A stretch of DNA of 64,000 nucleotides, taken from NCBI GenBank assembly GCA_051294905.1, contig CM119372.1:13146001-13210000 (forward strand), read 5' to 3'. Below are positions 40,488 to 61,991 of this stretch, piece after piece (positions within the stretch are counted from its first letter, which is position 1; each line of letters begins with the position of its first letter). The notes under the pieces were generated by a model. The model worked only from the letters and a program-made list of their open reading frames with translations, was not told where the DNA came from and made no database searches. Both the position numbers and the translations under genes were made by a program. This stretch comes from Botryllus schlosseri (taxonomy: Eukaryota).

Positions 40488-41147
40488 GGGCTCTTCAAAA
40501 ATGACTTTTTTTTCTCAAATCGTACTGGCTACTTGATAAAATTGTTAGGTTACCTAATTTAAGCCTACACACAAAATTTGGTTCAATTCCAGCCAGTAAC
40601 CGCTTTGCTACAGGAGAAGAAAGTTTCTATTTATTATATAAAAATAAATAATAAAAAATTTAAAAATTTTCTGTTCACCCCATAAAAGTGTTAGGCTGTC
40701 TATAGAAACGATGCTCACCAAATTTGGTTCAATTCCAACCAGTGGAAGCGGAGTTATTGCCGTCGAAAAATTTGGATTGGAATAAAATAGTATTTACGGT
40801 GAGTACAACTATAATAAATAAACAAAGAATCGGTCACCGGAAATAGTATTTTATTCAAATCCAAATTTTTCGACGGCAATAACTCCGCTTCCACTGGCTG
40901 GAATTGAACCAAATTTGGTGAGCATCGTTTCTATAGACAGCCTAACACTTCCATGGGGTGAACTGAAATTTTTCAAATTTTTTATTATTATTTTTTATAT
41001 AATAAATAGAAACTTTCTTCTCCTGTAGCAAAGCGGTTACTGGCTGGAATTGAACCAAATTTTGTGTGTAGGCTTAAATTATGTAACCTAACAATTTTAT
41101 CAAGTAGCCAGTACGATTTGAGAAAAAAAGTCATTTTTGAAGAGCCC
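40488..41147. mobile_element. 660-bp near-perfect foldback MITE with TA flanks
   Basis: GGGCTCTTCAAAAATGAC... / ...GTCATTTTTGAAGAGCCC; arms of ~300 bp are reverse complements; TA on both sides; near-identical copy at 59262-59921. Confidence 0.92.
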
Positions 41148-42134
41148 TAATATACATATTGCCTTGCTGGCCAATTGCCCAGACACTGCCAAGAACGGGA
41201 CGCTTAGAAAACAGCTTAGTGTTTCCCCACAAGATCAAGCTTTAGGAGGAGACAGCTTTTCAGCCAGTAACGCGTATCGCTAGCCCCAATATCGATTCTT
41301 TAGTCGCTGATAAGCGTTGTCAGGTAGGCCTATCGTGCGCAGCTCATAGTTGAAAATAAAATGAATTTCATAATCATGATGTTTCCTGTTCCATTTGTAC
41401 TTAGTTCTTTTGAGGTAACTATACCCATCGCTCATTTTGGAGAGCACAACGTTGTACTGACGTAAAGTGAAAGCGTGGTAAACATACGAATAATACTGAG
41501 AGCAAGCTGATTCCCTAGTAAAACGGCAAGATTTAACTCGACTATTAAAATGTCAGTTATGCCTGATTATCGACACACGGAAATGTTAGTCTGCATTATT
41601 CAAGAAAGTTGTGAAGTTGGGAAATAGAAAGGGTACTTCGATCAGAAGAATCGAAAATAGAAAAGATTTATATACTGTTTTCCTGACTAGCTTGTAGGTT
41701 CGTGTATGCTGAGTTAAAGTGCGGTTAAATCCAGTAGCGCAGCTTTGAACTTTTAACATCTTCCGAAGAATATGCACAACTCAAAAATATATGTCAATAA
41801 AATGATCTTTTAAATCACGTCGCTGAAAAGGATTAAAGATGGTATATATATACTTTATGCACTATACGCCGTGTGGCCACGTATACCATATGAGGGATAA
41901 TGATAACAAAATAAACAACTTTTCTCAGCATATATATAGCTAGATCGTTTTTAGAACAAATTGTGAACAAGAGCCAAAGCTCGCTAAACTTTCCATTATT
42001 CAATTCAGAAATACTAACTATCATATGCTAACAATTCAACCAAACTATTCAGTCTGAAATTATGCGGAATGGACTATGCAATGGAAAACGTCCCGCGTCA
42101 CTAAGTTGATCACCTCGGTATTTTCGGTCGCAAA

Positions 42135-45100
42135 ATGTTGCGTTTGCGGGCAAAGGCTAAAGTTCGATACGCAGTACTGCTATGCATTATTACCATCGTT
42201 GGAATTTACCTTTTCCTGAGAATTTCAAATCCGGGTACAACCAATAAGCTACTGGATGAGGGTTCTCACATCCGTAAAATCGAAAGTGACTTTTCTCGCC
42301 GGTCTTTCACCGCTAAATGGCACGACGGCCGTGGTTTGTTGAACGATATATCAGACACAAAGAGAAGCAAAAACATTCGAGCGAAATTCGAAAAGCATTT
42401 AGCGGACAGAAGGGCGCTGGAAGGCGAAGTTCGAGCTGGCAATATCGCGGTCGAGAAAGAACATATCAACCATGATGTCGATCTCACTCGTAATGATCAA
42501 ATTCAGAATGAAGTATCGGACAACGTTGACGAATATATCCAGGAGGAGGCAACGGATAGGCTGTTGACAACTGCAGCAAGTTATGAGTCGCATGTAATAG
42601 GTATGCTCACGGGTAACTAGTATGGTGTCTTTCAATGGATTTTGTGTCTGATAAAGCAGAATCCGAACGAAATGAGCGGAGATTTCCTACGCCGGAAATT
42701 CAGAGCAAAAGGTGAGAAATTTCTTGATACCGCCTAGCCACATAATTAAAGCTTTAGTCTGCTATGCAGCCACATCTATATTTATAAAGTTAATAACACA
42801 TTTCCTACATTCCATCTACAAACCCAGTTAATCGCTGCTACTAGATCGGACCATGAACAGCAAGATAATAGTTAGACGTTAAACATCATGGTGCTGTTAT
42901 AACGAACAAAGTCATTCAAGCGTTAGGAAACACTAAAGTAAATAATATTAGGAAGTTGCAGACGAAATGTGGCTGACTTATAACGTTATAAAAATAGCAA
43001 CGGGAATATCGATTTGAGTGCTCAATTTTAATGATTGAGTCGATAAGGTAGAGAGAGCCGATGTTTTCGTGAACAGAAATTATACGCCCCTTATTATTTT
43101 ATGAACGAGAATTGTCGCTGCGTAAATGTCTTCTGACAGTGGAAAACTTGACATTTCGTTACGACGGAGCATATCATTCAAACAAGTAGGACAATGCTAC
43201 CCTCGATCATAGAAACGACATAGCCTACCCGTGTAGTTGTGATCGAGCTGCGGTAATGCTTCATATCGCCATAGCATATTACAATCAATAAATTGGAAAT
43301 TCGTATAACTGGATGAAAAACGTACATATTTGAAATAGAAATCAAAAGCTCTAGAAATTACTCAAGCAATTTTATTTTGCAGAAGTAGATTAGCATGTGG
43401 CGTCGCAGACATTGGCTAGTCAATCGCCGGAGATATGTGTTTAACTTGAAATTTGACCATAATTTTGATAGCTCTTTATGACGGAGCGCAGACATTTCAT
43501 TTTCTCATATGATAATGCTGGAGTCGACAAATTACAACAAGGGAATATAAATTCCCATCGCATTTATAGCTATTTTTACATCGAATTATATTGGGATGTT
43601 CTCGAGTTATAATAACTTACACCTGCGCCATATTACAGAATGAATGAAAATCATCGACGAAAGGGTTCAATTCCAAAGAAGGTAACATCTTAATGTAGGC
43701 TTTTGGCCATACTTGTTTGCATGTAAATTGTACAAGTACATCTCTCGAATTTTTCGCAATAGCAGGCATGCCAAACTCAATTTAGCTCGCGGGCTGGATG
43801 CAGACTTCTATATCGTTTTGGGTCGGACTAATTAAACAAACCACCCCGAAATGTTGCCTTCAAATCAATACCGTTGTTTTTAATGAGGTGTTTCATTATC
43901 AAGCCTATACACAATATGTAACGTTGCAGACCATGAGGGCTAACGTACTCCTTGATTTGCGAACAATGAAATTGGTAAAAATACAATGATTGGCCGACTG
44001 ACTACAGCTGTAAGCCACTATAACGTGGCTCTACCAGAGGGCCATGAACATATGTTTTCACCGCATGCACATTTCTATGCTTCTGTTGTTTCGTTGGTGA
44101 TGCGGAGTTGTCCCTGCGTTTGCGTAGTGTGCAATACATTAGCCGTAAACGTGGGTGCTTCGTAGTTCATTCATAGTTACGAAGTCCCCATTCGGGTATC
44201 CACGGATACGATATTCGGTCGCGAAAAAGTATTATAGAGTGAGCCAGTTCACCACACAACGCTAAAGAAAGTGCGACACTAGAACAAATTATTTCCAACA
44301 CAACGTACACTTTTAAGTTCACACTTGATGAATAGAATTTCACCATATGGCTTTGTCACGATGGGATCTACTGAGTCAGAAGTTATATCGCCGTGCGACC
44401 ACATATATTTGCTTTGTATTATCGTTAACTTGCATAATACAAATGATAGCTTTGGCGTTTTCGCCTCTGTGAATATAAGCTTTCGAGCCATTTATTCCTC
44501 ATGAACATTTTGCACAGGTTGTGTAAATTTTGCTCTTCGAGGGCACAGACTTGTTAGTCTTGGCATACGAACATTGAACAATGAACATGTTTGTCATTTA
44601 CTACTCTGGCAGTTTATTTACTTGGAAGTATTTCCTTACTTTTGATGGAATTATACTGGATCATACTTGCATTTTTATATTCACTCATAATCGCATCTCG
44701 GCCCGAGTGGAATCATCCGGTGCTTGACATGGCTATGCGCCAGAGAGACAAAGAGAGCTTTCACAAGCTATATTGTCACTAAAAATTATTCAGTGTCGTT
44801 GGTATTTCCGTTCGAGACACGACCCGAGCAAGTACACATATGCTCATTATGCATAGGCGGTCATGCTCATCATTCATACCCAATACATTCATCCCACTAG
44901 GGTCGCAATTAAAACAAATAGTGTTTTAAGGCACTTTGTTTAAAACATATGTTTTATATAAATGTCTTTAAAAAAAAATCGTGTTTTTTTTAAGTTTTAC
45001 AATTATGTTATAATTTTGTAAATACTTTCCAAAAAACATGTTGTATATGAGCCTACGGGCAATTACCACCCGATATAGCCGACGTATATCGATATGGGTG

Positions 45101-48100
45101 GGTTGGAACCCGCAAAATAGTCGGTTCAACATTTATAGTACAGATATCTCGTCAAAGGAGCTATAATTACCCTATATTTTCAATTCTCAATGTCAATCCA
45201 CTATGACGTCACAATTGAATATTGGTGACGTCATGGCTTTAAAAAAAAACAATAAAAAACATGTTTTAAATAAGGGCCTTGCTTTAAACATGCTTGTTTT
45301 AAATTGATTTTTGTTTTAAATGTAACCCTACGGCCTACATCCCACGAACTTCGACGCAACCATAAATTTTGTATTAATTCAATAAACAGCTTCTTGGAGG
45401 TACAGAACTTCAATATACTATTCAATTCAATAAAGTAACGTATGATAGAACAGTGCTCTTCAACCGGGGTGGTCGTACACCCTAGGGTGTACCAGAATTT
45501 GCAAAGGGTGTACCACTCGGATGGGGTGTACAGGGGTGTACCAGATCCGAATTACAATGAGCCGATGGCTAGCTATCACAAAGGCAGGTTTATGGGTCAG
45601 GACAGGTTGACGCACAGGTTAATGAGCATGCAGCACCGTAACTGCCATACCCCAAACCCCCCAAAGGGGGGGGGGTGAGCTCGAAGGGGGCCCCAAATTA
45701 TTTCGAGAATTAACATAAATTATAGCGTATTTTTTTAAAATTTATGCAATTTTTTCCAAAATTTTTCGCGCTGCGCGCGATTTAAAGTTGCCAATTATGT
45801 TCATTATTTGGTACTCTTACCCCAAGAAAAAACGCGCAACATTTATAGAAATGGACATATCGGCGTTGGCCATTAACACGTCACCACGCACCAAGATATA
45901 TAATGATTTAGTACTTATTACATGCGACTCCAAGAAGTGTGCCAGAACGATCGGCAGCGCGAAAAGCTTGGTCGAAACGGACTGCCCTTACGCAGACCGA
46001 AAACTTCGTTATATATACCAAATAATAGGTTAAATTGTCCATAGGCGCCTAAATGACTGGCGCCATATGTTCCTGTCTTGGCAATCTGAACCTCAGAAGA
46101 CAAATACCATCCAGCAAGAAAAAAATATATGCCAGTGAAGAAATACCAATTTGAAATCGTGTGCGTCTTTTAGTTTAGTACGTTAGAGCAATTTTATATT
46201 TTTGATATAGCAGACAGGAGGTCACGAAATAAAATCATGTAACGAAGTCATACCAACGGGTCCGCCCACCCGAAAATGTTTAATTAATATTTATGGGCCC
46301 TACAGTTTCCGGTAAATCTGATAACATGAGCAGAGAGGACAAGATATTGATAGCAATATATATGCAATGCAATCTTATTGGCCGATTGTATCATGAATTA
46401 TCGAAAATTTTCGCGCTTCGAGCTGGCACACTAAACAGTGCAGCAAATTTCTCGACAAAAGCGAACACTGTGATGAGGGGTCGGTTTATCACCCTATGAG
46501 AACCCAAAACCCAAGTTATTGTGGGGGGCGGGGCTGACGAAGTGCTGTTTAGTTCCTGCCAACGGGTATACGCCCAAAGATGTCTAATTATTATTGGGAT
46601 GTCCTACAATTTTAAAACAGACTTCGCTCAGCTCTACCGGTAAATCTGATTACGTGAGCAGAGAGAGGATGAAAATTGATAGCAATATATATGTAATTCC
46701 TGATCATATTGCCCGATTACATTCTTGAATTACTGAAATTATTCGCGCTTCGCGCGTCTAGGCGGGAAAAGCGGTCTCACATAACGTACACCCAGTGGAG
46801 ATGTGAAATAGCGCCAAAAAGCGGATAGCCAAGGGGGGGGGGTCTGGGGGGAGAAGCCCCCCATAAGTTAGGTTTATCACCCCATGGGGGCCCTAGGCCA
46901 ACGATTTGGGGGGGAGCTGACGAAGTGCTGTTACGGCCCTGTGAGCATGGTACGATGTTCTCTCAAGTGTAATACTGTACACCGTTTGATTGTGATGTCA
47001 TAAGCACAAATCTCCCGTAATCATTTAGCCGTCGGCAATAGACCAATGGCTCCGTTTGGTGTTGGAAAGTATGCAGTTAACAAACATGTGTTCAGCTAGT
47101 CATTTGTCTTTTAGTGATTTTTGAGGAAACCGCCGCGATAGCTCAGACTTCTTGAATCGGTACTTCATACCCGACGTTAATAAATACCGCAATGAAAATA
47201 AAAAAGTGACGTAGCCAGCCAGGGTCGAAACAGCATCCATGATGAAATCGAAACCCTTTTGTTTTAAAATGCCGATGTTATGTCCAATATTTCGCCATAC
47301 ATTTGTAATTTAATATTTTGTTACTAGTGATGCAAATTAGCGACAATAGACTGTGTATAGCGACATAGGATCTGAGGTTACTGACATCTCATGCAGCCCA
47401 TGTGCTTCTGTCGACTGTGTGTGGTGTGGGGCAGGCCTGATACGCAGTAGGCTGGTGCGCCTGCTATCATCGCTGATCTGAATTACCGCTTCTGCAGCAG
47501 TAGCTTTACCTATTCTCTCCCCAATACTGTTACATTTAGGTTGATTATCGTTCGTAATGTCATGCTGTTTTGGGGCTGACACGAAATAAATTCTAATTTG
47601 CGTGACAGGCGGCCTAACTGGCGGCGAATAGACTCTGTGACCAAATACTATTTTATTCAAATCCAAATTTTTGACGGCAATAACTCCGCTTCTACTGGTT
47701 GGAATTGAACCAAATTTGAAGAACATCGTTTTCATAGACAACATAATACTTTCATCGGGTGAACAGAAAAATTTCAAATTTTTCGTTATTTTTTTTTCCG
47801 TAGCAATGCGGCTACTGGTTGGAATCGAACCAAATTTGGTGTGTAGGCTTAAATTAGGTAACCTAACAATTTTATCAAGTAGCCAGTACGATTTGAGAAA
47901 AAAAGTCATTTTTGAAGACCCCTAATGAACAGGGGTGTACGAGTTTTGAGCAAACGTTAAAAGGGTGTACCACTCCGAAAAAGGTTGAAGAGCACTGTGA
48001 TAGAACAAGGTACCATCAGCTTTTGCGACTGTTTCCAATCTCCTTTACCCGTGAATATCATCTTGAATTGAATAGCGATCTGTATGATTATATTGGTTAT

Positions 48101-51100
48101 GATCTTATATCAGATCATTATTAAGTATATTATTATGTAATACGGAATTTGAAATTGAGTATTATGTAATATTAATGACTCACAGCAGCCTGACCACACA
48201 AAAGAGAACGACAGGTATCTCGTGTCGGACATGAATCTCAAGGGAAAAGACAATAAAAATCATTCTCGCGACGTAAAGAACGACGTAAAAGATGTAACTC
48301 GAAGACAGACGCTGCAGAATGTCGGCAAGAAACCGAGCCCTACTAATGGACCCGCTTCAAATGACGTCATTTCGGATGTGAAAGAATCAAATCGTACGAT
48401 ATTTGATCCGGCAGATCACGAGATAACGTACATCTTACTCAAGGATAAGAATTTTGTCAAGTCGCTTTTCGACGAATCGAGAAAATTTGATACCTTTTGG
48501 GCGCCTGGATTCCCCATAACTCCCCACGGTAAGTTCAGTAAGTCCAAGTAAGTTTATCATACTTATTATACAACTGTACATCATCATGAGTAGCTTAGCA
48601 CAGTGCTCTTCAACCGGGGTGGTCGTACACCCTAGGGTGTACCAGAATTCGCAAAGGGTGTACCACTCGGATGGGGTGTACAGGGGTGTACCAGATCCAA
48701 ATTACAATGAGCCGATGGCTAGCTATCACAAATGCCGGTTTATAGGTCAGTACAGACAGGTTGACGCACAGGTTAACGAGCAATATGGTACAATGTTATC
48801 TCAAGTGTAATACTGTACACCGCTTGATTGTGATGTCATAAGCAAATATTTCTTCTATTCATTTAGCCGTCGGCAATAGACCAATGGTTCCGTTTGGTGT
48901 TGTAAAGTATGCAGTTAACAAACACGTGTTCAGCTAGTCATTTGTATTTTATTGATTTGTGAGGAAACCGCTGCGATAGCTCAGACTTTTTGAATCCGTG
49001 CTTCCTACCCGACGCTAATAAATACCGCAATGCACATAAATGAAGTGACGTAGCTAGCCAGGGTCGAAACAGCTTCCATATTGAAATCGAAACCCTTTTG
49101 TTTTAAAATGCCGATTGTATGTCCAATCTTTCGCCATACATTTTCAATTTAGTATTTTGTTATAAGTGATGTAAATTAGCGACAATAGACTGTGTATAGC
49201 GGCATACGATCTGAGGTTACTGACATCTCTTGCAGCCCATGTGCTACTATCGACTGTGTGTGGTGTGTGGCAGGCCTGATGCGCAGTAGGCTGGTGCGCC
49301 TGCTATCATCGCTGATCTGAATTACCGCTTCTGCAGCAGTAGCTTTAACTACTCTCCCCCCAATACTGTTACATTTAGGTTGAATATCGTTCGTTATATC
49401 ATGCTGTTTTTGCTCTGACACGAAATAAATTCCAATTTGCGTAGGGTTACTATACGTCCTCTTTTGAGAGGATTTGTCCTCTTTTTTGACTTTTTTGAAA
49501 GTGTCCTCGGAGGACGCCCTTTTGTCTACTTTTTTTGAGATTTTGTCCTCTTTTTTGAAAATTTAGGTCAGATTTAGAGCAAATTGATATGCCATAAATC
49601 AGCACAGAAGTGACGCTCCGGCTGGTATTTCGGAGTGAAAAACTGTGATTTTAGCTCTGAGTGAAAAGTTGACCTTTTTTTAGTCATCCACCTAGCAATG
49701 CGGAGAGAAAAACGATATTTTGAGCTCTGAGCGGAAAGATGACCTTTTTTTTAGTCAATTGATCACCAAGTGGGAAAAATTCACCGGTTTTTTAGAATTC
49801 TTCTCCGGTTTTGCAAGTCTCAAATTTCTGAAAAAGTGTCCTCTTTTTAGATTTCCAAAATATGGTAAGCCTAAATTTGCGTGGCGGGCTGCCTAACTGG
49901 CTGCGAATAGACTCTGTGACCAAATACTATTTTATTCAAATCCAATTTTTTGACGGCAATACCTCCGCTTCTACTGGTCGGAATTGAAGCAAATTTGAAG
50001 AACATAGTTTTTATAGACAACCTAATACTTTCATGGGGTGAACAGAAAAATTTCAAATTTTTCGTTATTTATTTTTGTATAGTAAATAGAAACTTTCCTC
50101 TCCCGTAGCAAGGCGGCTACTAGTTGGAATTGAACCAAATTTGGTGTGTAGGCTTAAGTTAGGTGGCCTAACAATTTTATTAAGTAGCCAGTACGATTTG
50201 AGAAAAATAGTCATGTTTGAAGACACCTAATGAACAGGGGTGTACGAGTTTTGAGCAAACCTTAAAAGGGTGTACCACGTCGAAAAAGGTTGAAGAGCAC
50301 TGGCTTAGCATCTGTAATAGGCAGGGAAGTGCGGAGTCGCAGCAAATCATGCATTCTATTTCGCCTATCGACACATCAACCACTTCATTTTCATCACTTT
50401 TACGATGTTCTACTGTAAGACTATCATCATCATCATCATCATCATCATTTGTTTATTAGCAATTTTATCAGTTCAATCCACCACAAAAATGCGATACAAT
50501 GAAAGGTTAGGAAGGTGTAGAAGCGACTTCGAGTATAGTCTATGGCAGTGGTCGGGAACCTTTTTTGTCAGAAGAGCCATATTAGCCCTATTTTTCCATC
50601 TCAGCTCCCAAAGAGCCATACAAGCCAACCAACTGTTACGTCATAATTGAAAATTCGTGTCGTCATTGTAGCACTAATTCGAGCTCACTACGTCGGATTC
50701 CTCGTGCGCGCCATATTTTCTCTGTAAAAACTAGTATCTATAATATAAAAATAAATGCTCGAAACGAGAGGTAAGACACAGACGGGCCAAGCCTCACCAT
50801 TGATAACGCAATTCATAGTAAGTAGCTTATAATTTATTATAACTGATATTAATCGAATGTGAATGATTCCGAAAATCTAAATACTTATCGACTTCTGAAT
50901 TCTCAAAGTATTCGGCGGTAACATAGCGTTGCGTTACACGCCTACATTTTCTCCCCGGTACTAAGCAGAGCTATTACTTACCAATCAAGAACGCGGATAG
51001 CTATGACGTTGTTTGTAATTCGAGTTTGTAATTTTCACATCCCCAACAGTTCATTTCGTGCCGTAGATCAGGAAGACTACGTTTTGAAATGGGCGTTGCC

Positions 51101-54100
51101 ATGTCCGGTATGCTCAAGATTTCAAGTCGGGTAGCCTACATAAAATTCGTGAGTGATATTGGCCGCCGGCGTGACGTAACTTAAACTTGATGATTTTGAA
51201 AAGAGAAAGTCCGAACCCCTGAACCTGAAGACGGCATTGTCTTTACCTCTCAAAGACATGTTTATACTTCCACCAGAATATAATTATTATGGCCGTGATG
51301 AAAATTTACCAACAAGTCGATGCAATATTGATCAATTCAGTACAAAAATAAATATTTGGCAAAGAGCCATATCTTATACCCAAAAGAGCCATATATGGCT
51401 CGCGAGCCATAGGTTCCCGACCACTGGTCTATGGAATCAGACACCCACCCTGGCCTATAGGGCCTAGGCTATGTAAAGAGGAAGCATGCACACTGAATGA
51501 AAAGTAAACGAAGAAAATATAGAAAAAGCAAGCGACAAAAATGAGGTGCTGGGATGTTATGGAAGGTAATCTTGAGGATCGACTAGTATTCATTTAGTAG
51601 TAATTGTTTGTATTTCGACTTGAATGTGGAGTGTGGACATGCTCGATGCGATGATCTTTTCGGTCTATCATATGATATTTGGACGACGTGGACGCGCATG
51701 TGTTGTACTTGTGCGCTTTTAATTCCGAGGTAAAGAAGTCATTGAAATATTCGGGCCCATGACCGCAGTGGAACTGATACTACAAATTGTTTTCGACTCT
51801 TTCTTCCTATCCCAATCTTGTGGTGTTTTTAAATGATAAAATTACTAAAAGGAACTGAATTCATGTCTCGCCGCAACCAGAAATAGATATGAGGATTTCT
51901 AATCAGTAAGGGAACTCTAAAATGAGAAGATTACAGGCTTGTCAATACAAAATTCATAAAGGCTGTCTTTTCCTAAGTATGTTGGCAATGCGCTGTCCCG
52001 TCGGAACATTCCCTCCTAGATCTTATTTACCCAAAAAATTCTCTCGTATAGAAGCCATCATGAAATACGGAGACCGCCTCCCGTCGTGGGAAAGATTCGA
52101 AATCATGCATTATCCGAAGATATTTTACCTCGGACTTGGCGCGAACAAGACGCAACTGACTTCGAACGCGACGGAAAACTTTGGATATGATTACTTTCAC
52201 GAGGACGAGGAAGAAGGGCATTACAGAATCGTAAGTGCATTATCAATAATCGTGTAATATAATATGCTTGCTTTGGAACAAAATCTCCACCTGGTCCACC
52301 GGAATTTTCAACGTAGTCACGTGATCTGGCTTGTGACGAACTTGATCTCCAACAATTTTTCGATCTCAAATTTTAGTTTGGTTCGACCGATGCATGGTGC
52401 ATTGTACATTTGTACATGCTATTATGGGGTCCCCGTTTTGGTCATAACGACGATCACGTACTCATCGCGAAGGATGTTCACGTAAATGTTCATTGTTCAA
52501 CAATGTAAAAATTGACCCGTGTCCAAATTCAAACTTCGAATTGTTGGCAGTTCATAGTTATGCTTATTTTGCGCGAATGGCTCATTACCTCTTTAGGACA
52601 TATAATGCTAAGCATAAAAACTGCTTTTCTTTCCAACAACAAACAGACTACCTGGTGCAAAAGGCCGTCAGGCGATACACGCTAAATCTTATTGCTCAAT
52701 GAACAACAACAATAACACTACCCAATTTGACGACGATCGGATGGATTTTTGGCGAAAGTATAGTAATAATGCGACTATAGTTATACACTTTTACGCTTGT
52801 TCACTTCATTCGGGATATGTACATTCCGTTTGAAGCGCAAAGACAGTGTAGGAAACTCGTTTCAATGCGAGTCTAATCCCTTGCTTTCGGCGAATGATCT
52901 ACTAAATAAGATAAGAAAAGTTTTTATTCTTTACCGCGCTTGGAAAACTGCAAAATTGACTTAGTCGCGCTTCACTGATGATGGTCGAACTAGGAATCAA
53001 TTCATTCACTTCCCTTGTGCATATGGAAGCTGATTTAAAATGTATGTATGTAACATTATTGGCCTAATGGATAATTATGATGTTTCACGCACAAAGACAT
53101 CACTTACCGGTGCGGTATATACACTGTTAAAAATATTCTATGCCAAATTACTGGTCTGGTCCTGGCAGCAGTTTTACGACTCTGAGACCGGTAAATTTGA
53201 AAAATATCGTCCCGTAAATATTATTGACCGTAATTTATTTTTACAATGACTGACTGTTAAAATTTTTACGGAAAATTCCCGTTACCTGATGTAACGGAAA
53301 ACGGCTGTAATACCAAGTTACTGGTCTAGTCCAGTGCAGCAGTTTTACGCTGATGAGACCAGTAAATTCGAAATAACTCTCCGTAATATGATTTTACATA
53401 TGCTGACCGTAGGAAATTTTACGGAAAATTTCCATAACTAAAGGTAACAGAAATCTGCTGTAATATTAATATACTCGTCTGGTCCCTTGCAGCAGTTTTA
53501 CGTTCCTGAGACCAGTAAATTTGAATCAGGTTTATTTGGTGCGGGAACACGTAAAAAAAAAAGTAACTGTGGATAATGACGAAAATCCAGTCTTTCTTGT
53601 GGAGATCATCAGTCAGCAACTGCCTGAATGAAGAGGGATCATCAAAACTTCAGCAGCAGTTGAAGGCCTGTACTTTGGGCCATGCTCTTTTGTAGGTTCT
53701 TCTATAATCTGAACAAAGATTATGCTGTCATCAACACCGTTACAATTTGGAAACTTTGAGACGCTATAGTATGACATACTGCGACTTTTCATATTCTTGT
53801 CAATTTCTCAAATAATGTTGGCCTAGGATAGCGGTGTCGAACATAAGGCCAGCAGGCCGCATGCGGCCTGCGAAGCAATTCTGAGTAGTTTGAAAAACCC
53901 CTGTATTACCCAGCACATTTTTTAACAAATGTTGAGATATTATTGTAAGAAATGCTTCCCGCAAGGCCACAAATGTCAAGATCATAGACCGTGATATAAT
54001 TATCCGACAGTGGTGTTATGGTTTTACTCTAGTCATCATCAGGAACAAGTTGGTGATACTGACATCCAATTCCCAAAACTCCAAAAAGTGCACACTGAGT

Positions 54101-57100
54101 TCATATTTTTATGAAGAAATGAGCCAAAAAGTAGTTATTCGGGAAGTGAAAAAAAAAACTGTTATATGCAGGTCGCATGGAGAATATAATAGTTATAAAA
54201 AATACAATTCAAATATATTTGGTTGCACTGCTCTATCACTTCTACTTAAAGGCCCCAGACAGACGGAGCAACCCGAAGGACGATTAATAATGAGCCAAAT
54301 TCTAACGTCTGCGTTTACAATTAAATCACTTGTGTTCCTCAAAAAGCGCATACGATGAGTTAACGGCAGATTACGAATAAAACAAAGGGAGCATACAAAT
54401 ATGTCAGCTTATTCCGTCGTTTGAGTCAGTGTTTTAGCGGTTGAGTTCAAACGATCAATCTTTGAATTTTTGCCAAAATTCCGTAGTTTGCGAGTAAAGG
54501 TGCTGCTAGAATATATCCATATGATATGATCGTGAATGTTATGTAATATACCAAAATGTATACAGGATTGATAATAAACTATTCAAGCGAAAAGTAAGGT
54601 CGGGCGTTTTGATGTACCGTAACATTTTGGAATGATTTGACTGATCCGGCCCGCGAGCGTTTGAAAGTTTGAATCTGGCCAGCGACGCAAGTTGAGTTTG
54701 ATACGGATACCCATGGCCTAGCACTTCGTACCTGAATCATCTTTTCCAGCGTGATTGCAAACTTTTCTGGCAATACTCCTTTCCATCGCACGTCCAATGT
54801 ATTTCGCACGGCGTCGTGCTGGAAGCGAGAGGCGAAATGATCCCTTCCTATCACATAAGCATTTGACGTCATGATTCATAATGCCATACCGCTTCCATTT
54901 TCGTGTAGTTCAATGTCAGAAAATGTAATACAAGCCATAGCTTCTGTTCACCATTAAACTGTAACGAAAATACATACGTCTTCAGAAACAGGACTGAGAA
55001 TAACTTGCCAGATTTGAGCTCGGATACTGCTATACCTACAATATCTGCTATCAACACCTGCAATATTCTAAAGCTAGAGTTAAGCTGTGGCTTCGAAACC
55101 CTCAATATCTTACAGCAACGCATCTTGTTATTATCCAATACGAAAACATCGCGTGGATATAATATCTATTTCGGAACATTCAGCCGCACGTGCTCAGGCT
55201 CAGATATGTCTGACGTCTGACGCCACTATGTCTGGAATATGTATGACGTCACAATGTACTGTTCGCTCGAGCAGCTACGAATTCATGATCAAACAATTCA
55301 GAAAGCCATTCGCAGGAAAAAGGTAAAAGACGTCTACTACTCTCGTCGCAATGGCAAAGGAGCATGGCGGCTAAACACCAGCTCCAGTGTTTCGATATCT
55401 AGTTTGCATCATACATGCGTTAAGGAGTCTACAATGGTGGCAGAACTGGTCCAACAGATAATTACACATAAGATCATACCTGCAGTAAAACTACATAACA
55501 TACCAAATTTGCTTGCCATGCTACTATTGCTAGACCTTGATGTCTCAAAGGATACTATTTATAAAGCGATATAAACGATGGTATCTGCAATGCCCAAATG
55601 TCCGGATACCATTCACCGATTAGCAATCAGCACGGCCATCGATGTCGTAATTTGCTTGATGATTGAAACATGATGTAATTACGAAAATCACATATATATA
55701 TGTCCATAAGACCGTAAGCGTGTAAAATGATCGAATTGTGAGTGATAGCAATGTCGGTAATAATGATTATGCAGTAAATCGCTTTTACGAATGCAAAAGT
55801 AAATCCGGAATACTTATTATCCAGTAAATTGCTTTTACAAATCCAAAAGTAAATCTGAAATACTGGTTATCACGTAAATTGCTTCTACGAATTTAAGCTG
55901 TAATTTTTTTACCCTTTAAAAACAAGTAAATTTACTTTTGACGTGCCCGTATATTAATTTAACGGGCATTTACCGTTAATATAACTGACGGGACAAATTT
56001 ACCGGTATAATTTGGGTAAATCTACGAATATTTCTAAGAGTGTAGGTGGATGGAACCATGATAGAACGTATAGATATCCATATCCATAAAACTCATCCTC
56101 GTTGCATTGCGGTACAAAATCGTGGTACCAATTCGGACTATACATTTCGCCATCGCACTATAATTTCTAGCTTTTCCGGCTTTGAATGTAAATTGGGACT
56201 TCTCATCGAAAGTAATTGAACATATTCCCCGTCACGTTTGCGTGTCGAATTAGCATGTTCGAAACGTAATTGGCGTGATCGCCGTGTAATTCAGGTGGTC
56301 GGCGATCATATTGCATATCGGTTCGAAATCATTAAATTTCTGGGATCTGGAACGTTCGGAGCGGTCGTGCTTGCAAGAGACTGGTCTCAGCCTGCCGCCA
56401 GAAACGTGGCCTTGAAGATAATGCATTACGACGAGTAAGCTTATCTTCTTACGGGATCGCCTAGTGCATATAATGCTGATGAGTAAGGCCGGATGCAATG
56501 ATTCGAATACTAGAATACGAATCGAGTATTGATAGTCATGGTTCGAGTCGATAAATGAGTGAAGATTTTGACAAGTACTCAAGTTATACGCCCCTTTCAC
56601 TAAGAATATTATCGTCAACGTGATTTACAGTTTCTATGCTGCTTTCCCGTCGAAGGATGATTGGAACCTAGATGCTAGACACAGACAGTGGTGGGCAAAC
56701 TGCGGCTCTTTCAGCCTTTTGTTTGCGGGTCTTTGATGATTGCATATGCATATGTAATCATGTATTTTATCGGTAATTTACAATATGCGTATTGTTTTCG
56801 TATTGGTTCTTTCCTTATGGTTTATGCGAGATTTGTAAAATTCGGGGGACAGCGGCAATACAAGGTTAGAAATTTGTAATTGAACGATCGAATTGAGTTC
56901 AAATAAACGTTTCACCCGCAACAACGGATGCCTGGCCGGGTTGTAATGACTCGAGTCATGACTCGACTCGAGTCACAGTTTTTTGATGACTCGACTTGAC
57001 TCGATTCATTTTCTCAAAGTACGGAAATGACTCGACTCGACTCGAATCAATCTGTGTATTGACTCAACTTGGATTTGGAATCAAGTCACATGACTCGAGA

Positions 57101-60100
57101 CTCAGACGGCCAAGGTCGACATTTCATTGTAATTTCGAAGAATAGCGAAGTAACCACACTATTGGGATTTCATCTATTGGTACTGGATACTTGAAAATGC
57201 GACCGGAAACTGCTAAAAGTGAGAAAAAGTAGTATATTATAAATGCGAACCATTCGATATCACCAAACAAAGGTATAAAAAGTGATTTTAACAAGACTTT
57301 AGCTGTAAACTGAGCAGTCAACACAATGACTTGGACTCGGAATCGAGTCATAATTCCATGACTCGGACTCGACCCTCTGCTTGCTGGCTTAGACTCGAAC
57401 TTGACTCGGTGGTGAATTGAAAATAACTCGACTTGACTCGAGTCAAAACTACAAAAGTGAGATTGACTTGTGACTCGGTAACAAGCCTGATGCCTGGTCA
57501 TCAAGCAATGATAAATCATTATGTTCAACAATGAACTTGATAATTGAGTGCACCAGCGCAGGTCACAATCATACCCGTGCTAGCAATGGTGAATAAGGCT
57601 CTTCCATTTGTACTATAAAGTGTAACAATAACCGCAGAGTTTTACCGAGAAAATGTGGTCGAGATTTCCGCGCTGAAATCTCCCTTGAATTCTCATCAGC
57701 ACTTGAAGGAACTGTTCCGAACTGCTGAGACGTCATATATGCTTGATTTCAAACATCTTGCAGCCCAAGTGGAATCGCACCGTATCAGCACAAAATAATA
57801 AACTTCATTCGATAGCCTAAATTTTATTCTGATGTCACAATTTCGCATGTTTGTGTTGTGACTCTTCTAAAGCTAAAATTTTTGATGTGCGGCTCGCGCA
57901 TGAAGCAGGTCTGCCCACCACTATGCTAGATCCATGGTATCACAATAGCCAAAATATGCAGTACAAAGCTACGCCCATTAGTGGAAATGTCATTGATGTG
58001 AAGTCAGGATCACACACATTGTCACAAGTGCTATGACAAGCTATGGTCGTATCATAGCATATATAATTTGGAGTACTTTCCACATCAGCTATACTCTTAT
58101 GACGTCACAATAAACGATACCCGAATATTAGCATCGACTCGAAGGTTAACAATTGATTCCAAATAGAATCACTCAGGTACTCGATTTTGCTCATCCCTAC
58201 TGAACTGTGATAGTACCGTACACCTGTCAAAGGTAATTTCAAGTCTACGAATTCGTCCCTTTTCAGAAATGACAAATACATAATAAGGGAGTTGAATATG
58301 ATGAAGGCCATCGAAGGTAACGCGACGAACAAAGAGTACTTTTCGCGCATGTTAGCAACCTTCAATTTTCGCAACCACAAATGTATGGTGCTGGAACTGT
58401 TGGGGTAAGAGCATTCGGTCTTATTCCTAGATGACACATAACCGACTGGTGTTGAATTCAGTGATCGACAGCTGTTGAATTAAGCAATTCATTGACATCG
58501 CGGCCAAAACTCCGAGATATCGGACTACAGTACTACGACACCTTTTCCACAAGATGCAATTCCTACAAAATACTCAGTTAGCGTGATACAGGGCTATTTC
58601 TCACATTCATTATTAAAGTTTCACCGGTAAAGGAGATGCATTGCATACCTATCCAAAAACTACATTATACTTTACAAAATCCGATCTGTAAAAAGTTAGT
58701 GCTTTAGAAACTGTCAAGTAGAAGTGCAAATGGTCTGTAAACATGACCACTCGAACAAGTAGTAGAAGTACTGTAGGTAAAACATACTTGAATGCTTCCA
58801 TAAATTAGAAGTACTTCGTTACTGACCACTTCTGGTGCACCCTCGGTGTCTTAAGGCCAAGTTTACTTTCAGCCTGTTATCACGAAAGCAACGGCCCATA
58901 GTGGTGTCACATTTTAACGGTATGTTGACAATCTTCTTTTCAAAATATAGAGACTCGCTACATCGCCACAAACATGGACCGGTCAAGGACTTGAGTCTTT
59001 TCCGTCGGTTCGCTCACGACATTCTCATGGGGCTTCATTATTTGAAAGAGCTCAACGTCGTTCACGCGGACATGAAGCCAGTATGATGTAACACAAGTCT
59101 TTCGACCACCGACTAAAGCATTTCTTGTCACTCAGGGGAATATAATGTATATGTACGGCAAAAGCAACACAAGTGAAGGTCAGCTACTGAAAGTCGCCGA
59201 TTTCGGCATCGGTTGCGTTCCTGGAGACAAACGTGAGTGTACCCCTGTACACTGTACAGTAGGGCTCTTCAAAAATGACTTTTTTCTCAAATCGTACTGG
59301 CTACTTGATAAAATTGTTATGTTACCTAATTTAAGCCTACACACAAAATTTGGTTCAATTCCAGCCAGTAACCGCTTTGCTACAGGAGAAGTAAGTTTCG
59401 ATTTATTATATAAAAATAAATAATAAAAAATTTGAAAATTTTCTGTTCACCCCATAAAAGTGTTAGGCTGCCTATAGGAACGATGCTCACCAAATTTGGT
59501 TCAATTCCAACCTGTGGAAGCGGAGAGTTATTACCGTCGAAAATTTTTGATTTGAATAAAATAGTGTTTACGGTGAGCACAACTATAATAAATAAACAAA
59601 GAATCGGTCACCGTAAATACTATTTTATTCAAAACCAAATTTTTCGACGGCAATAACTTCGCTTCCACTGGTTGGAATTGAACCAAATTTGGTGAGCATC
59701 GTTTCTATAGACAGACTAACACTTTTATGGGGTGAACAGAAAATTTTCAAATTTTTTATTATTTATTTTCATGTAATAAATAGGAACTTTCTTCTCCTGT
59801 AGCATAGCGGTTACTGGCTGGAATTGAACCAAATTTTGTGTGTAGGCTTAAATTAGGTAACCTAACAATTTTATCAAGTAGCCAGTACGATTTGAGAAAA
59901 AAAGTCATTGTTGAAGAGCCCTACTGTACAGTATACGAGAGTTTTCCCGATCAGTCACGCATACCGCGGGAGAATTCCAAATTTCAACGAAGATTGAGTA
60001 GCAAATAATATAAGCGCAGTGAGTCGCTCACCGTGCGTACGCAGCTATCGGACTATCCTACTATATATATAGTTAGGCTATATATCGAGGTATTCGTTGA

Positions 60101-61991
60101 AATTTCGACCAGTCATGCATATCTAGCCTGGAACCCCCGATTCGTGAAGTAGGCCCTACACCTATAAAAGTCGATGGAACCGTTATAGTCCAACATATGA
60201 CTGAAAAAAATGAGAGCGGAACTGCATATTGATAAATTTCAGTTTGAAGAGTTTCTTCTGTTCGGCGTAATCTTGGTAATTAAAGATTTCGTAAGTGACC
60301 AATTATATTAGCGATTATATTACGAACCATTTATGGTGCATTTAGGTTCGAAATTTAGTTTACACTGAATCATCATCTTCTATGAAACCCTAAAATAGGG
60401 CTACTAAAATATTTTACGTAGGACTGTCTAGGTCTACTGCAATTCATCTTGATTGAGATGTTTATTTTCCGTTTATTCTTTGCTCAAACAATTGTGATCA
60501 TTGATCAATCATCTGATTGAAGTGCATTTTGTCATTTTGCAGATTTGTTCAAATGTCCATCATACTACGTACAAACGCGATATTACAGAGCCCCGGAGGT
60601 AATACTAAGTCTCGGAATCACCCCTGCTGTCGACATGTTCAGCGTCGGGGTGATATTTTCCGAATTTTACCTGGGAAGTCCGCCGTTCTTCGGGGAGACG
60701 GAAACTGATCACTTTGCCTCCATGATGGAAGTATTGGGTCTTCCGCCCACGCATATGATCGCAAAATCACCGAGGAAGAAGGTTTATCAAAGTAAGGGGC
60801 GATTCGCGTTTAGCAAACCGTTATAAATTATCGAAAAACATTCAAATCCCATGGTACACACATCGCATAATATTATTTTCGAATATATTCGGTGATGTAT
60901 TGGATAGTTCTCCGATCTAGCTATTATAGTATGCCTGTAAATACTTATATATTTTTGGGTGGCTTGTGCTTGTGCAGCGTGCAGTGTGCATGCGCAAGTT
61001 TGCACTATCATTGATTGTGTTGCGAGTGGCCAACAGGCGATAAGCACCAAATAACAATAAAAGACAGAAGTATTGAAACATGCTGTCAGTGCATCAGGGA
61101 AGCTGTCATGTGCCGAATAATTGTGACGACATCATTACAGATTACAGTAACATGGCTAAAATTCAACCCAGTAGACTAGAAAACACCGCAGCTCTAAGCT
61201 CTCTGCGACATGGTCTCTATACGGCCCACTGCGTAGTCTTCTTTTACATATCGTTCAAATGATGTTGATTTTGATTCAGGGGCTATCTGCTACGAGACCG
61301 AAAGCGGGTTTAAACGGCGACCTTACCGAAAACCGCTCACGAAAGTATTGCATGGGATGGATTCGGAACTGTTCGATCTCATCGCTAGATGTCTCGAGTG
61401 AGTAATTTGTGTGCATTTTAAATAAATGAAAGCTAACGTTTAAAATTTCATCATATTACTCAACGGTGTGTGCGCGTGAATTTGAAATGAACCCGAATAT
61501 ATTCGGCTTACACTCGTCAGGGGTGATCGTCAGCAGCTAGTAGAGAATTGATATAATGTTCTCTCCAATTCTCTACTAGTTGCTGGCGATTGCCCCTGAC
61601 GACTGTGTCAGGCGAAAATATTCGGGTTCATTTCAATATGAATATACTATTCAATTGTATATTATAACAAACACGCTCGTTTAAAATTTCCTTATAAGAC
61701 CACTTACCTGAATTAGAATTTACCAATCATGCTATTTTATCTCCTAGAAAGCTTCGAGCTTCAACACATACATCCAATCATCCATCTTATCGGTATATAG
61801 GCTAATGTATATTTCTATAGATGTATCGATAGAGCACATACGTATACGTAATCCGAACATTTCTTAGGTTCGACCCGAAACTTCGCATAACTCCCGAAGA
61901 AGCATTGAAGCATCCATTTGTTACCGGAATTCAACCTGACAACGAGTTGAAAACACCAATTTCAATGCAACGATTTCTCGGAAAGATTTGA
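42135..61991 (+). CDS. Class II DYRK (DYRK2/3/4-like) kinase with N-terminal type II transmembrane anchor, 13 exons, ~711 aa
   Basis: Exons 42135-42600, 42660-42711, 43639-43681, 48186-48528, 51881-51905, 52020-52230, 56295-56434, 58267-58404, 58951-59080, 59136-59232, 60543-60791, 61280-61397, 61868-61991; all GT-AG, phases consistent, 2136 nt total. NAPA-like WERFEIMHYPKIFYLG, DH box GYDYFHEDEEEGHY..DHIAYRFE, GSGTFG, VALK, HADMKPGN, DFG, YYVQTRYYRAPE, GETETDHF, FDPKLRITPEEALKHPF. The kinase part is near certain; the link to the TM exon is inferred from phase compatibility. Confidence 0.82.
45451..47997. mobile_element. Composite hAT-type element, copy 1 (kinase intron 3)
   Basis: Perfect TIR CAGTGCTCTTCAACC / GGTTGAAGAGCACTG; perfect TSD TGATAGAA; GGGTGTAC subterminal repeats. 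Confidence 0.92.
45631..46941. mobile_element. hAT-type element nested in copy 1
   Basis: TIR CAGCACCGTAAC / GTTACGGCCCTG; perfect TSD TGAGCATG; absent from copy 2 at the equivalent site; another copy starts at 63268. Confidence 0.85.
48601..50302. mobile_element. Composite hAT-type element, copy 2 (kinase intron 4)
   Basis: Same TIRs as 45451-47997; perfect TSD GCTTAGCA; body colinear with copy 1. Confidence 0.92.
49442..49873. mobile_element. TAGGG-terminated MITE nested in copy 2
   Basis: Ends TAGGGTTACTATA / TATGGTAAGCCTA; perfect TSD AATTTGCG; GTCCTC repeats; absent from copy 1. Confidence 0.82.
50546..51426. mobile_element. hAT-type MITE inserted into a LINE 3' remnant
   Basis: Perfect TIR CAGTGGTCGGGAACC / GGTTCCCGACCACTG; perfect TSD GTCTATGG; GAGCCAT repeats; the LINE 3' UTR resumes after it. 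Confidence 0.9.
53122..56042. mobile_element. Putative CAC-terminated (EnSpm/CACTA-like) non-autonomous element in a kinase intron
   Basis: Ends CACTGTTAAAAATATTC / GAATATTTCTAAGAGTG flanked by TA; dense TTTAC/GTAAA subterminal repeats at both ends. Confidence 0.5.
56686..57923. mobile_element. hAT-type MITE containing a nested GACTC-repeat element (~56936-57490)
   Basis: Ends CAGTGGTGGGCAAAC / GTCTGCCCACCACTA with GCGGCTC motifs; the inner segment matches 10311-10876. Confidence 0.65.
59262..59921. mobile_element. Foldback MITE (second copy) in a kinase intron
   Basis: Near-identical to 40488-41147; TA flanks inside a palindromic target ACTGTACAGTA...TACTGTACAGT. Confidence 0.92.
61478..61655. 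repeat. Inverted pair of hammerhead-bearing family A repeats in the last kinase intron
   Basis: Minus copy 61491-61524 (ACCC-CTGACGA-GTGTAAGCC-GAAT-ATAT-TC-GGGT) and plus copy 61592-61627 (GCCC-CTGACGA-CTGTGTCAGGC-GAAA-ATAT-TC-GGGT), separated by an inverted CTAGTAGAGAATTG / CAATTCTCTACTAG spacer. Confidence 0.7.

Follow-up and report, generated by a model that had tools for sequence, protein, structure and literature searches.

The 64,000-nucleotide window of Botryllus schlosseri DNA analysed here contains a genuine DYRK gene at 42135-61991 on the + strand (as are all features below), predicted to encode a catalytically competent DYRK2-type kinase of about 692 aa with a candidate signal anchor at its N-terminus. 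The layout of anchor, stem and kinase is conserved in one frame across relatives and, judged by their phylogeny, the anchored DYRKs are a single tunicate clade. The anchor build of these tunicate proteins suggests a secretory-pathway rather than a cytosolic site of action, and we give about an even chance to the specific topology in which a type II anchor would leave the kinase domain luminal or extracellular. No membrane-anchored DYRK was described in the literature searched.

Our gene model comprises 12 exons (2079 nt, 692 aa), with every intron GT-AG. The 13-exon, 711-aa frame of an earlier sequence-only reading was reproduced exactly, with donor 48528, a mini-exon at 51881-51905 and acceptor 52020, all 13 GT-AG exons being stop-free. 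However, the 25-nt mini-exon and early acceptor insert 19 residues between ...FPITPH and EAIMKYGD that are absent from every homologue spanning the junction (alignment A2), and the junction 48528>52052 is the top-scoring splice when the window is aligned to P0002, a protein from a cDNA-sized contig of a close relative. Aligned with relatives, the 12-exon model is the better match and is preferred. P0002 aligns to the window in 11 collinear segments, with the kinase exons far above chance.

Exon 1 (42135..42600, residues 1-155) contains the start codon, basic tail, anchor and first part of the stem. It lies in an open frame at 42105-42617 with its first ATG at 42135 and the donor G/GTATGC, is 43% identical to P0002 residues 1-147 and alone matches P0002 with an E-value of 1.2e-26. 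Putative exons 2 (42660..42711, 52 nt, open frame) and 3 (43639..43681, 43 nt, restoring the frame jointly with exon 2) both have AG/GT borders and were placed solely by splice signals and frame; similarity of exon 2 to relatives is not significant, exons 2/3 rank fourth when the intron's open pieces are compared with the relative's cDNA, and the frame would likewise stay open with any one of 202 other GT-AG mini-exons. Exon 4 (48186..48528) provides the remaining stem, two sequons (NHS, 48258-48266; NRT, 48390-48398) and the NAPA1-like start (FPITP); it matches P0002 residues 192-295 (tblastn E 2.8e-18), and its donor, CACG/GTAAGT, was picked on top score. Exon 5 (52052..52230, 77% identical to P0002 residues 291-351) encodes the NAPA1-like region, two NAPA-DH linker sequons (NKT, 52144-52152; NAT, 52165-52173) and the DH-box-like segment NFGYDYFHEDEEEGHY (52177-52224). 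Its acceptor, TATAG/AA, leads into ...ITPHEAIMKYGD, matching relatives, and its alignment to the DYRK2 chain 3k2l begins at 3k2l residue 29.

The kinase fold is distributed over the remaining exons. Exon 6 (56295..56434, 89% identity to P0002) carries the NAPA2 motif GDHIAYRFE (56301-56327), whose His and Tyr are near-invariant in an 88-sequence alignment, the Gly loop GSGTFG (56343-56360) and the VALK lysine (56406-56417). Exon 7 (58267..58404, 85% identity) encodes helix C and beta4-5 with an NAT sequon (58319-58327), and exon 8 (58951..59080) helix E and, from 59063, the catalytic loop HADMKP. Exon 9 (59136..59232) contains DFGIGC (59199-59216) and, ahead of it, the beta7-beta8 turn, which carries a 4-residue insert peculiar to the family and an NTS sequon (59166-59174). 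Exon 10 (60543..60791, 88% identity), whose open frame by itself matches Pfam Pkinase with an E-value of 7.2e-12, spans the activation-loop insert, the activation-loop Tyr and helices F-G, including KCPSYY with its family-specific Cys (60551-60568) and APE (60590-60598). Exon 11 (61280..61397, 95% identical to P0002 residues 603-641) covers the CMGC-insert region and helix H; exon 12 (61868..61991) covers helix I, the stop codon and a conserved C-terminal tail ending ...TPISMQRFLGKI, a motif common to P0002, P0003, P0007 and P0010.

At the N-terminus, the basic tail MLRLRAKAKVR (42135..42167; five K/R, no D/E) is followed by the 17-residue hydrophobic segment YAVLLCIITIVGIYLFL (42168..42218, residues 12-28) and by a stem of approximately 270 residues, as had been described from the letters of the window; the stem is disordered. 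The segment has a Kyte-Doolittle 17-residue mean of 2.65, and its 19-residue mean of 2.39 is the maximum of the protein, the runner-up (1.91) lying within the kinase fold. In the structural model of P0002 the equivalent segment falls inside a predicted helix at residues 2-37 (pLDDT 72-91), and residues 37-218 have pLDDT below 50.

Anchor and kinase share a single frame and an identical start methionine in P0002 and P0155 (681 aa each, from the close relative's cDNA-sized contigs of 2363 and 2252 nt), in P0007 (549 aa on a 1850-nt contig) and in the Styela clava model XP_039267506 (P0003, 727 aa), which bears out the proposal that the anchor exon is part of the same protein as the DYRK module; N-terminus and kinase are in one frame in P0163 and P0011 too. 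The protein from the close relative's cDNA-sized contig is identical to the window protein at 452/692 residues overall. XP_039267506, identical at 342/692 residues, shares with the window protein the start, the anchor, the juxtamembrane motif RRS(F/L)TA(K/R)WHD, the sequon sites and the C-terminal tail, and on these resemblances is likely the ortholog.

Where a single recruited DYRK2/4 paralog had been envisaged, we found instead a family, with at least five anchored paralogs in S. clava: P0003 and, besides it, P0008/P0158, P0009, P0010 and P0167. The corresponding "DYRK2/3/4-like" models (XP_039267506, XP_039268466, XP_077967153, XP_039272066 and XP_039268667) are named from kinase similarity only, with the membrane anchor unmentioned. 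Four of these at least five paralogs are on record on a 25.6-Mb contig, whereas P0002 and P0007, used as queries against the window's genome, found one family locus, the present gene. The last exon of an ordinary DYRK2 lies elsewhere in the same genome (L005), and the anchored gene is therefore an additional paralog. An acid-free K/R tail followed by an in-frame hydrophobic segment is present in P0002/P0155, P0007, P0003, P0008/P0158, P0009, P0010 and P0167, and all eight single-anchor members have a K/R-rich, acid-free tail ahead of the hydrophobic core. In a scan of 169 proteins, N-terminal hydrophobicity over 17 residues reached 1.72 or more in 20 rows, all of them family members or P0139 and P0040, which carry family motifs. 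Four divergent members (P0011, P0163, P0139 and P0040) have a second hydrophobic segment ahead of the basic cluster. The paralog search and DYRK phylogeny that had been proposed thus recovered anchored relatives, and in the 87-row tree all 11 family rows fall on one side of a branch (SH-aLRT 99) separating them from 76 ordinary DYRKs.

By sequence, the module is class II DYRK-like, of a divergent DYRK2 type, as originally assigned. Human DYRK2 and DYRK3 (PDB 3k2l, 5y86) are its best solved relatives both in sequence (DYRK2 E 1.5e-64, with the alignment spanning the NAPA1 region through the kinase end) and in structure (Foldseek ranks 1-13, target TM-score 0.77-0.86, identity about 33%). In common with them, the window protein has the NAPA2 His/Tyr, a DH-box-like GYD...GHY, the VAIK lysine (VALK here), the catalytic-loop D/K/N, DFGxxC, the activation-loop Tyr and APE. 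The Gly loop is also kept, so that the claim of a full set of catalytic motifs holds except that the DYRK-specific HCD reads HAD, with Ala for Cys. Unlike DYRK2 and DYRK3, the window protein has a basic tail, a hydrophobic anchor, a long disordered stem and two 4-residue inserts, one in the activation loop with a conserved Cys and one at beta7-beta8 with a sequon; its sequons are more numerous and its cysteines fewer.

The recognised secretory-pathway kinases include FAM20, four-jointed, VLK/PKDCC and POMK. None of the known ones appears among the 60 best solved-structure matches listed, which are DYRK, CLK, HIPK, PRP4 or MAP kinases and three rows of generic or unnamed kinases; judged by these matches they have no homology to the window kinase, in agreement with the view that it is not of a recognised secretory-pathway type. 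In POMK and Golgi type II enzymes, a short basic tail precedes a signal anchor, from which a stem leads to a catalytic domain past the membrane. The build proposed for the window protein equals theirs, its luminal site being a predicted one.

Sequons are enriched in the family, about three-fold relative to ordinary DYRKs. The NAPA-to-kinase region contains a mean of 3.0 (range 2-5; 10/12 members, P0010 and P0040 being below the coverage filter) versus 0.98 in ordinary DYRKs (131 hits, 46 of them without any); after shuffling, 1.0-1.9 would be expected in the family and 1.40 in the controls. Mann-Whitney p values for this comparison overstate the evidence because the family members are related. 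In tree-based averages, the two family clades score 3.5 and 3.29, compared with 1.83 for the top of 18 control clades. There are two hot spots, both in predicted coil of the structural model: the NAPA-DH linker (9/13 family rows) and the beta7-beta8 turn (8/13), where the triplet takes five different forms across the deepest splits of the family. When everything past the anchor is counted, the excess is modest (55 sequons versus 38.9 shuffled, summed over 12 proteins), and P0158, P0011 and P0040 show no excess.

The cysteines are remodelled as well. The HCD Cys is present in 0/12 family members versus 69/76 controls in the column comparison, DFGxxC is kept in 12/12, and a Cys in the activation-loop insert, 10 residues past DFGxxC, occurs in 10/12 versus 0/76. 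The beta7-beta8 insert, usually sequon-bearing in the clade, is absent from 75/76 controls. Mean cysteine number in the NAPA-to-kinase region is 5.8 in the family versus 8.9 in ordinary DYRKs, and the window protein has five cysteines past the anchor, an odd count without disulfide-rich adaptation. In the DYRK1A and DYRK2 structures the HCD and DFGSSC cysteines are 4.4 and 4.2 A apart, and redox control of the pair has been raised as a possibility (PMC3677093).

From these features we infer ER targeting, orientation, glycosylation, a disulfide and a class of substrates. Residues 12-28 would be inserted co-translationally into the ER membrane while the basic tail stays cytosolic, and such type II insertion would therefore place the stem and the NAPA/DH/kinase module in the secretory lumen, on the cell surface or, if shed, beyond it. 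The module could then be N-glycosylated at loop sequons in the NAPA-DH linker and beta7-beta8 turn, and the kinase could phosphorylate luminal or secreted substrates with luminal ATP. In an oxidising compartment, loss of the HCD cysteine may keep an inactivating disulfide from forming between HCD and DFGxxC, with the new Cys a candidate partner in a stabilising activation-loop disulfide. The N-side basic cluster, the sequons and the cysteines point towards the luminal orientation originally put forward. In some paralogs, however, charge differs little across the anchor or differs in the opposite sense: with automatic segment limits that swallow part of the basic tail, N exceeds C in only five of eight single-anchor members, is equal in P0009 (+1/+1) and is reversed in P0002 (+3/+4) and P0158 (+4/+5), and several members have distinctly basic flanks on the luminal side. 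In the two-segment relatives the basic cluster (+2 to +7) forms a short inter-segment loop and the flank past the second segment is 0 to +2; a cytosolic loop would put the kinase across the membrane again. No animal CMGC kinase is known to act in the lumen.

It is possible, if on balance doubtful, that the anchor instead holds the kinase on the cytosolic side of an organelle membrane. The mitochondrial outer membrane, or the ER with an external N-terminus, would be the most plausible site, and the protein would then be an ordinary cytosol-facing DYRK whose novelty is localisation alone. Mitochondrial outer-membrane signal anchors show a similar basic-flanked, moderately hydrophobic pattern. 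Several members have just such a short, acid-free Arg/Lys/Ala/Leu-rich N-terminus with basic residues on both sides of a moderately hydrophobic segment; the C-flanks of P0002 and P0158 are those given above, and the P0003 segment reaches just 1.76. The hydrophilic, charged, disordered stem resembles a cytosolic linker, the odd cysteine count fits, and the protein retains every catalytic and NAPA/DH element that DYRKs need to mature normally in the cytosol. However, the window segment is strongly hydrophobic, the basic loop of the four two-segment relatives would be non-cytosolic at an ER-type membrane, and a cytosolic location leaves unexplained the two- to three-fold sequon enrichment with its deep-split hot spots, as well as the loss of a near-universal HCD cysteine and gain of a conserved one in the activation loop.

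The sequon and cysteine arguments are equally valid for a soluble secreted or luminal kinase released by signal-peptide cleavage. The core of just ~17 residues behind a positive n-region, and the small residues that follow it in P0003 (..YGIA/RV), would suit this arrangement, but the predicted helix at 2-37 is much longer than a typical signal-peptide core, neither the window protein (LRISNPG) nor P0002 (LKNSRST) shows a clear small-x-small cleavage motif after the core, and the two-segment relatives resemble hairpins; we consider cleavage improbable. The link from exon 1 to exon 4 through two tiny putative exons leaves room for an anchor exon outside the kinase protein, whether as a separate small gene, through a wrong model or through an internal ATG yielding a soluble kinase. 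This is very unlikely given the one-frame proteins in the close relative's cDNA-sized contigs, the S. clava models, P0007, P0163 and P0011, the protein-level conservation of exon 1 (E about 1e-26), and its sole match in a genome search (E 6.9e-28), immediately 5' of the kinase exons on the same strand.

Like the tunicate proteins, the Leishmania major CK1 isoform LmjF17.1780 combines an ordinary cytosolic-type kinase family with a predicted signal anchor, noted in a kinome survey that also discusses ecto-kinase activity (PMC1266030); unlike the tunicate clade it is a single protist gene of the CK1 group, and its anchor too is a prediction only. DYRK maturation is described as a one-off Tyr autophosphorylation during translation on cytosolic ribosomes (PMC3677093), which we counted against a luminal kinase. 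In several of the anchored paralogs the Gly loop or the DFG glycine has degenerated, which could reflect relaxed selection.

The window spans G000:C2:13146001-13210000 of a 495-Mb assembly. Its nearest protein matches (G+C of the window about 39%) are ascidian (Styela clava), and its plus-strand open pieces between 42105 and 61991 include recognisable kinase exons. Using the largest of these (60521-60823) as a query, we recovered six proteins at E ≤ 0.001 among 38 candidates. Two stood out: P0002, from a close relative (681 aa, 2363-nt contig), which is 88% identical across this exon, and P0003, a 727-aa S. clava protein (XP_039267506) named 'DYRK4-like'. Both begin ML(R/C)(L/F)(K/R)AK.KVRY, continue into a hydrophobic run and end in a DYRK kinase. 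Eleven segments of the window are collinear with P0002, with exon 1 matching residues 1-147 at 43% identity (E 1.2e-26). By taking, among GT/AG pairs, the junctions that scored best against P0002, we arrived at a plus-strand model of 12 exons, all GT-AG (42135-42600, 42660-42711, 43639-43681, 48186-48528, 52052-52230, 56295-56434, 58267-58404, 58951-59080, 59136-59232, 60543-60791, 61280-61397 and 61868-61991). It comprises 2079 nt and encodes 692 aa, with identities of 452/692 to P0002 and 342/692 to P0003.

The sequence-only reading had joined 13 exons into a 711-aa frame. That frame is open, but its extra 25-nt exon (51881-51905) and early acceptor are unmatched in relatives: the 19 residues that they add are absent from the homologues covering the junction (alignment A2), and both were rejected. 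Exons 2 and 3 have good splice signals and restore the frame as a pair; their similarity to P0002 ranks fourth among the open pieces of that intron, where 202 alternative single mini-exons likewise preserve an open frame. On the sequence at hand this putative pair is the weak part of the model. The observation made at the locus thus stands, with its exon model corrected. Dispersed repeats have copies, 62-97% identical, 5′ of the gene (40508-41222) and in introns 3, 4 and 9 (46947-47997, 48785-50302 and 59280-59996), and a further repeat pair (45446-45605 and 48596-48755) is 96% identical.

That the anchor exon and the DYRK kinase belong to one gene, as had been proposed, is borne out. We assign exon 1 to the kinase because anchor and kinase share a single frame in the relatives, because exon 1 is conserved at the protein level, and because its only match in the genome is on the same strand, immediately 5′ of the kinase exons. 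The contigs carrying five of the family proteins scarcely exceed the coding sequence (P0002, 2363 nt; P0155, 2252 nt; P0007, 1850 nt; P0163, 1819 nt; P0011, 1698 nt), and their length suggests that they are cDNA. The N-terminal hydrophobic segment of the window protein has a 17-residue mean of 2.65, and both it and the basic tail are conserved; among the ordinary DYRK matches, N-terminal segments all score ≤ 1.34. The window protein therefore departs from the DYRK pattern of a soluble kinase without a membrane segment. A Pfam search with exon 1 and the stem returned only sub-threshold matches, and those to CENP-F_N, DNER_C and SLIDE were set aside as chance. About 25 residues past the anchor, the window protein (approximately 42297-42344, in exon 1), P0002 and P0003 share a juxtamembrane motif, RRS(F/L)TA(K/R)WHD(G/S)R.LLN, outside which the stem shows little conservation among the three orthologs.

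To assess the class of the kinase we used P0002, the ortholog of the window protein; the two are 85% identical in the NAPA-to-kinase region. Pfam detects a full Pkinase domain (E 4.6e-43), and phmmer against the PDB places DYRK2 (E 1.5e-64) and DYRK3 (3.6e-63) ahead of DYRK1A (6e-43) and CLK3 (1e-42). Foldseek with the P0002 model gives DYRK3 and DYRK2 at ranks 1-13 (target TM-scores 0.77-0.86), so by both methods the kinase is closest to the DYRK2/3/4 group, as in class II DYRKs. Of the best 60 PDB matches listed, three have a generic or unnamed kinase label and the others are DYRK, CLK, HIPK, PRP4 or MAP kinases, and no homology to FAM20, four-jointed, VLK or POMK was seen, with Pfam giving Pkinase and PK_Tyr_Ser-Thr only. 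The alignment to DYRK2 chain 3k2l opens at its residue 29, in the NAPA1 region (FPITPQEAIARYGDK versus PMTPEQAMKQYMQK), and takes in the linker, GYD...G.Y and DH(I/V)(A/G)YRYE, the NAPA/DH feature of class II DYRKs; the role of these residues follows a DYRK1A/DYRK2 structure paper (PMC3677093). The NAPA2 His and Tyr are almost invariant. In the AlphaFold2 model of P0002, built from an 88-sequence alignment, pLDDT exceeds 90 over most of residues 290-660, a helix spans residues 2-37 and the stem is disordered.

The window protein itself retains the Gly loop, VALK, the catalytic D/K/N, DFG, the activation-loop Tyr and APE. The description of a complete class II DYRK module consequently survives as to the NAPA/DH match and the catalytic motifs, but HCD reads HAD and the acidic run of the DH box has diverged (YDYFHEDEEEGHY). 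The activation-loop Tyr occupies the aligned column in the window's ortholog, in 8 of 12 family members and in 75 of 76 controls, its phosphorylation being only predicted. Elsewhere in the same genome (L005, G000:C14:14495574-14499125) sits the terminal exon of an ordinary DYRK2 ortholog, so the anchored gene is an additional paralog. A C-terminal tail, P-x-x-x-(Q/K)-R-(F/L)-x-G-(K/E)-(I/V/L)-stop, is conserved at the extreme end of the window protein (61868-61991), P0002, P0003, P0007 and P0010; the P0002 model predicts a short helix there.

When P0002 was searched exhaustively with phmmer, the scores showed a clear step. Above it are P0003 (676 bits) and P0007-P0012 (455 to 326 bits); below it come P0013, which is an ordinary DYRK4-like protein from a barnacle, Pollicipes (286 bits), and other ordinary DYRKs (≤ 271 bits). 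When the first 80 residues of 169 proteins were scanned for hydrophobicity, the top 20 rows (17-residue mean ≥ 1.72) were family proteins and their cluster mates together with P0139 and P0040, which share family motifs. In place of a basic tail and one segment, four divergent members (P0011, P0163, P0139 and P0040) have a pair of hydrophobic segments at the N-terminus, with a short, strongly basic loop (+2 to +7) between them. A tree of 87 rows was built from the NAPA-to-kinase region, rooted by midpoint only, with P0139 long-branched and the partial P0010 and P0088 omitted; in it a branch with an SH-aLRT of 99 separates the 11 family rows from the rest. The search for anchored paralogs and the DYRK phylogeny suggested earlier have thus yielded relatives, at least five of them in S. 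clava, and, for the 11 rows placed in the tree, one clade. These five gene models (P0003, P0008, P0009, P0010 and P0167) bear only DYRK2/3/4-like names, and four are recorded on one 25.6-Mb contig.

With P0002 and P0007 as queries, the genome of the window yielded this locus alone from the family. A profile search with a 12-member family alignment gave, among the best 8000 candidates, at least four proteins at E ≤ 1e-60, all already known as family members. With the first 300 residues of P0002 as query, a word-index search returned P0002 alone among 1534 candidates and is uninformative on distribution, and residues 1-90 had no usable match in the ESM Atlas. Catalytic motifs are degenerate in P0009, P0158, P0011, P0163, P0007 and P0010 (DFD, DFA or DFN for DFG; HSDLKLQN; Gly loops such as DNGYYT), and the activation-loop Tyr is lost in 4 of 12 family members. 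Judging from these motifs, some paralogs may be weak kinases or pseudokinases.

What is new is a group of DYRK2-like tunicate kinases, forming one clade, that carry a putative signal anchor and show characteristic cysteine changes at the active site. We compared the family with 76 ordinary DYRKs (alignment A1). The window's catalytic loop reads HADMKPGN, and the HCD cysteine, present in 69 of 76 controls, occurs in none of 12 family members, which have A, G, M, S or N there. The DFGxxC cysteine is kept in 12/12 (controls 71/76). A four-residue activation-loop insert with a Cys is found in 10 of 12 family members and in 0/76 controls (P0010 lacks the region, and P0139 is misaligned, its PC motif being read by eye), and a four-residue β7-β8 insert is family-specific, being absent in 75 of 76 controls. 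The DYRK1A/DYRK2 structure paper describes HCD in all DYRKs, places its Cys 4.2-4.4 Å from that of DFGSSC and raises redox control as a possibility (PMC3677093).

On which side of the membrane the kinase lies was judged from charge, glycosylation sequons and cysteines. The N-tail is K/R-rich and without acidic residues in all eight single-anchor members, and in the four two-segment members the basic cluster is the loop between the segments. Sequons in the folded region average 3.0 in the family (n = 10) versus 0.98 in controls (n = 131), where composition-shuffled sequences lead one to expect 1.0-1.9 and 1.40, respectively, and cysteines average 5.8 versus 8.9, the family rows not being independent in either comparison. 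By clade, family values are 3.5 and 3.29, and the highest of 18 control clades reaches 1.83. There are two sequon hot spots, both modelled as coil: the NAPA-DH linker (9/13 rows) and the β7-β8 turn (8/13 rows; NVS, NES, NQS, NTS, NCS). Since the tail charge, the sequon enrichment with its hot spots and the fewer cysteines all count as signs of a luminal or extracellular kinase domain, the best single reading, to which we would give about an even chance, is a kinase anchored with its domain in the lumen; to the luminal variant that is cleaved and secreted we give a far smaller chance.

Other observations count against it. Automatically computed flank charges favour the N-side in five of eight single-anchor members, are equal in one and reversed in two; whole-length sequons are in modest excess (55 versus 38.9 shuffled); and the window protein has an odd number of cysteines after the anchor. 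A mitochondrial outer-membrane anchor, or another that leaves the kinase facing the cytosol, is a serious rival. A presequence directing import into the mitochondrial matrix was rejected by reasoning, as 11 residues alone precede the hydrophobic segment.

If the luminal orientation is right, the cytosolic redox pair of the HCD and DFGxxC cysteines may have been exchanged for a disulfide in the activation loop that suits an oxidising compartment, and secreted or tunic proteins would be candidate substrates. The fuller proposal, that a DYRK2-like ancestor gave rise in tunicates to a glycosylated clade of CMGC kinases acting within the secretory pathway or extracellularly, with this redox pair giving way to the disulfide, we rate slightly short of an even chance. 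On that proposal the clade would be the first animal secretory-pathway kinases of CMGC/DYRK descent, and luminal phosphorylation would have arisen in it independently.

To our knowledge, the DYRKs studied so far are soluble cytosolic or nuclear kinases, and the known animal secretory-pathway kinases come from a small number of unrelated families of atypical kinases. The existence of a conserved, monophyletic DYRK clade with a putative signal anchor indicates that an ordinary CMGC catalytic module can be adapted to attach to a membrane and, if luminal, also to an oxidising, glycosylating compartment. The clade provides a natural experiment on what a cytosolic kinase has to alter for such a move (loss of the HCD Cys, a new activation-loop Cys, surface sequons), and in at least five S. 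clava genes the anchored architecture is hidden by public names. The listings and abstracts of the literature found by full-text searching describe no membrane-anchored or secretory DYRK. Elsewhere among kinases, a Phytophthora kinome paper assigns all those with transmembrane segments to TKL (PMC3019232), and a Leishmania one notes a CK1 that may be an ecto-kinase, a signal anchor being predicted for it (PMC1266030).

Two further loci were noted. On the minus strand of the window, an open piece at 9479-9856 matches BTB_2, of the potassium-channel tetramerisation type (E 2.3e-07), and probably belongs to a neighbouring KCTD-like gene as one of its exons. On contig C12 of the same genome, two intronless MAP-kinase-like frames of 376 aa with identical scores lie 15.5 kb apart on the minus strand (G000:C12:14446877-14447728 and 14462390-14463241), apparently a recent tandem duplicate.
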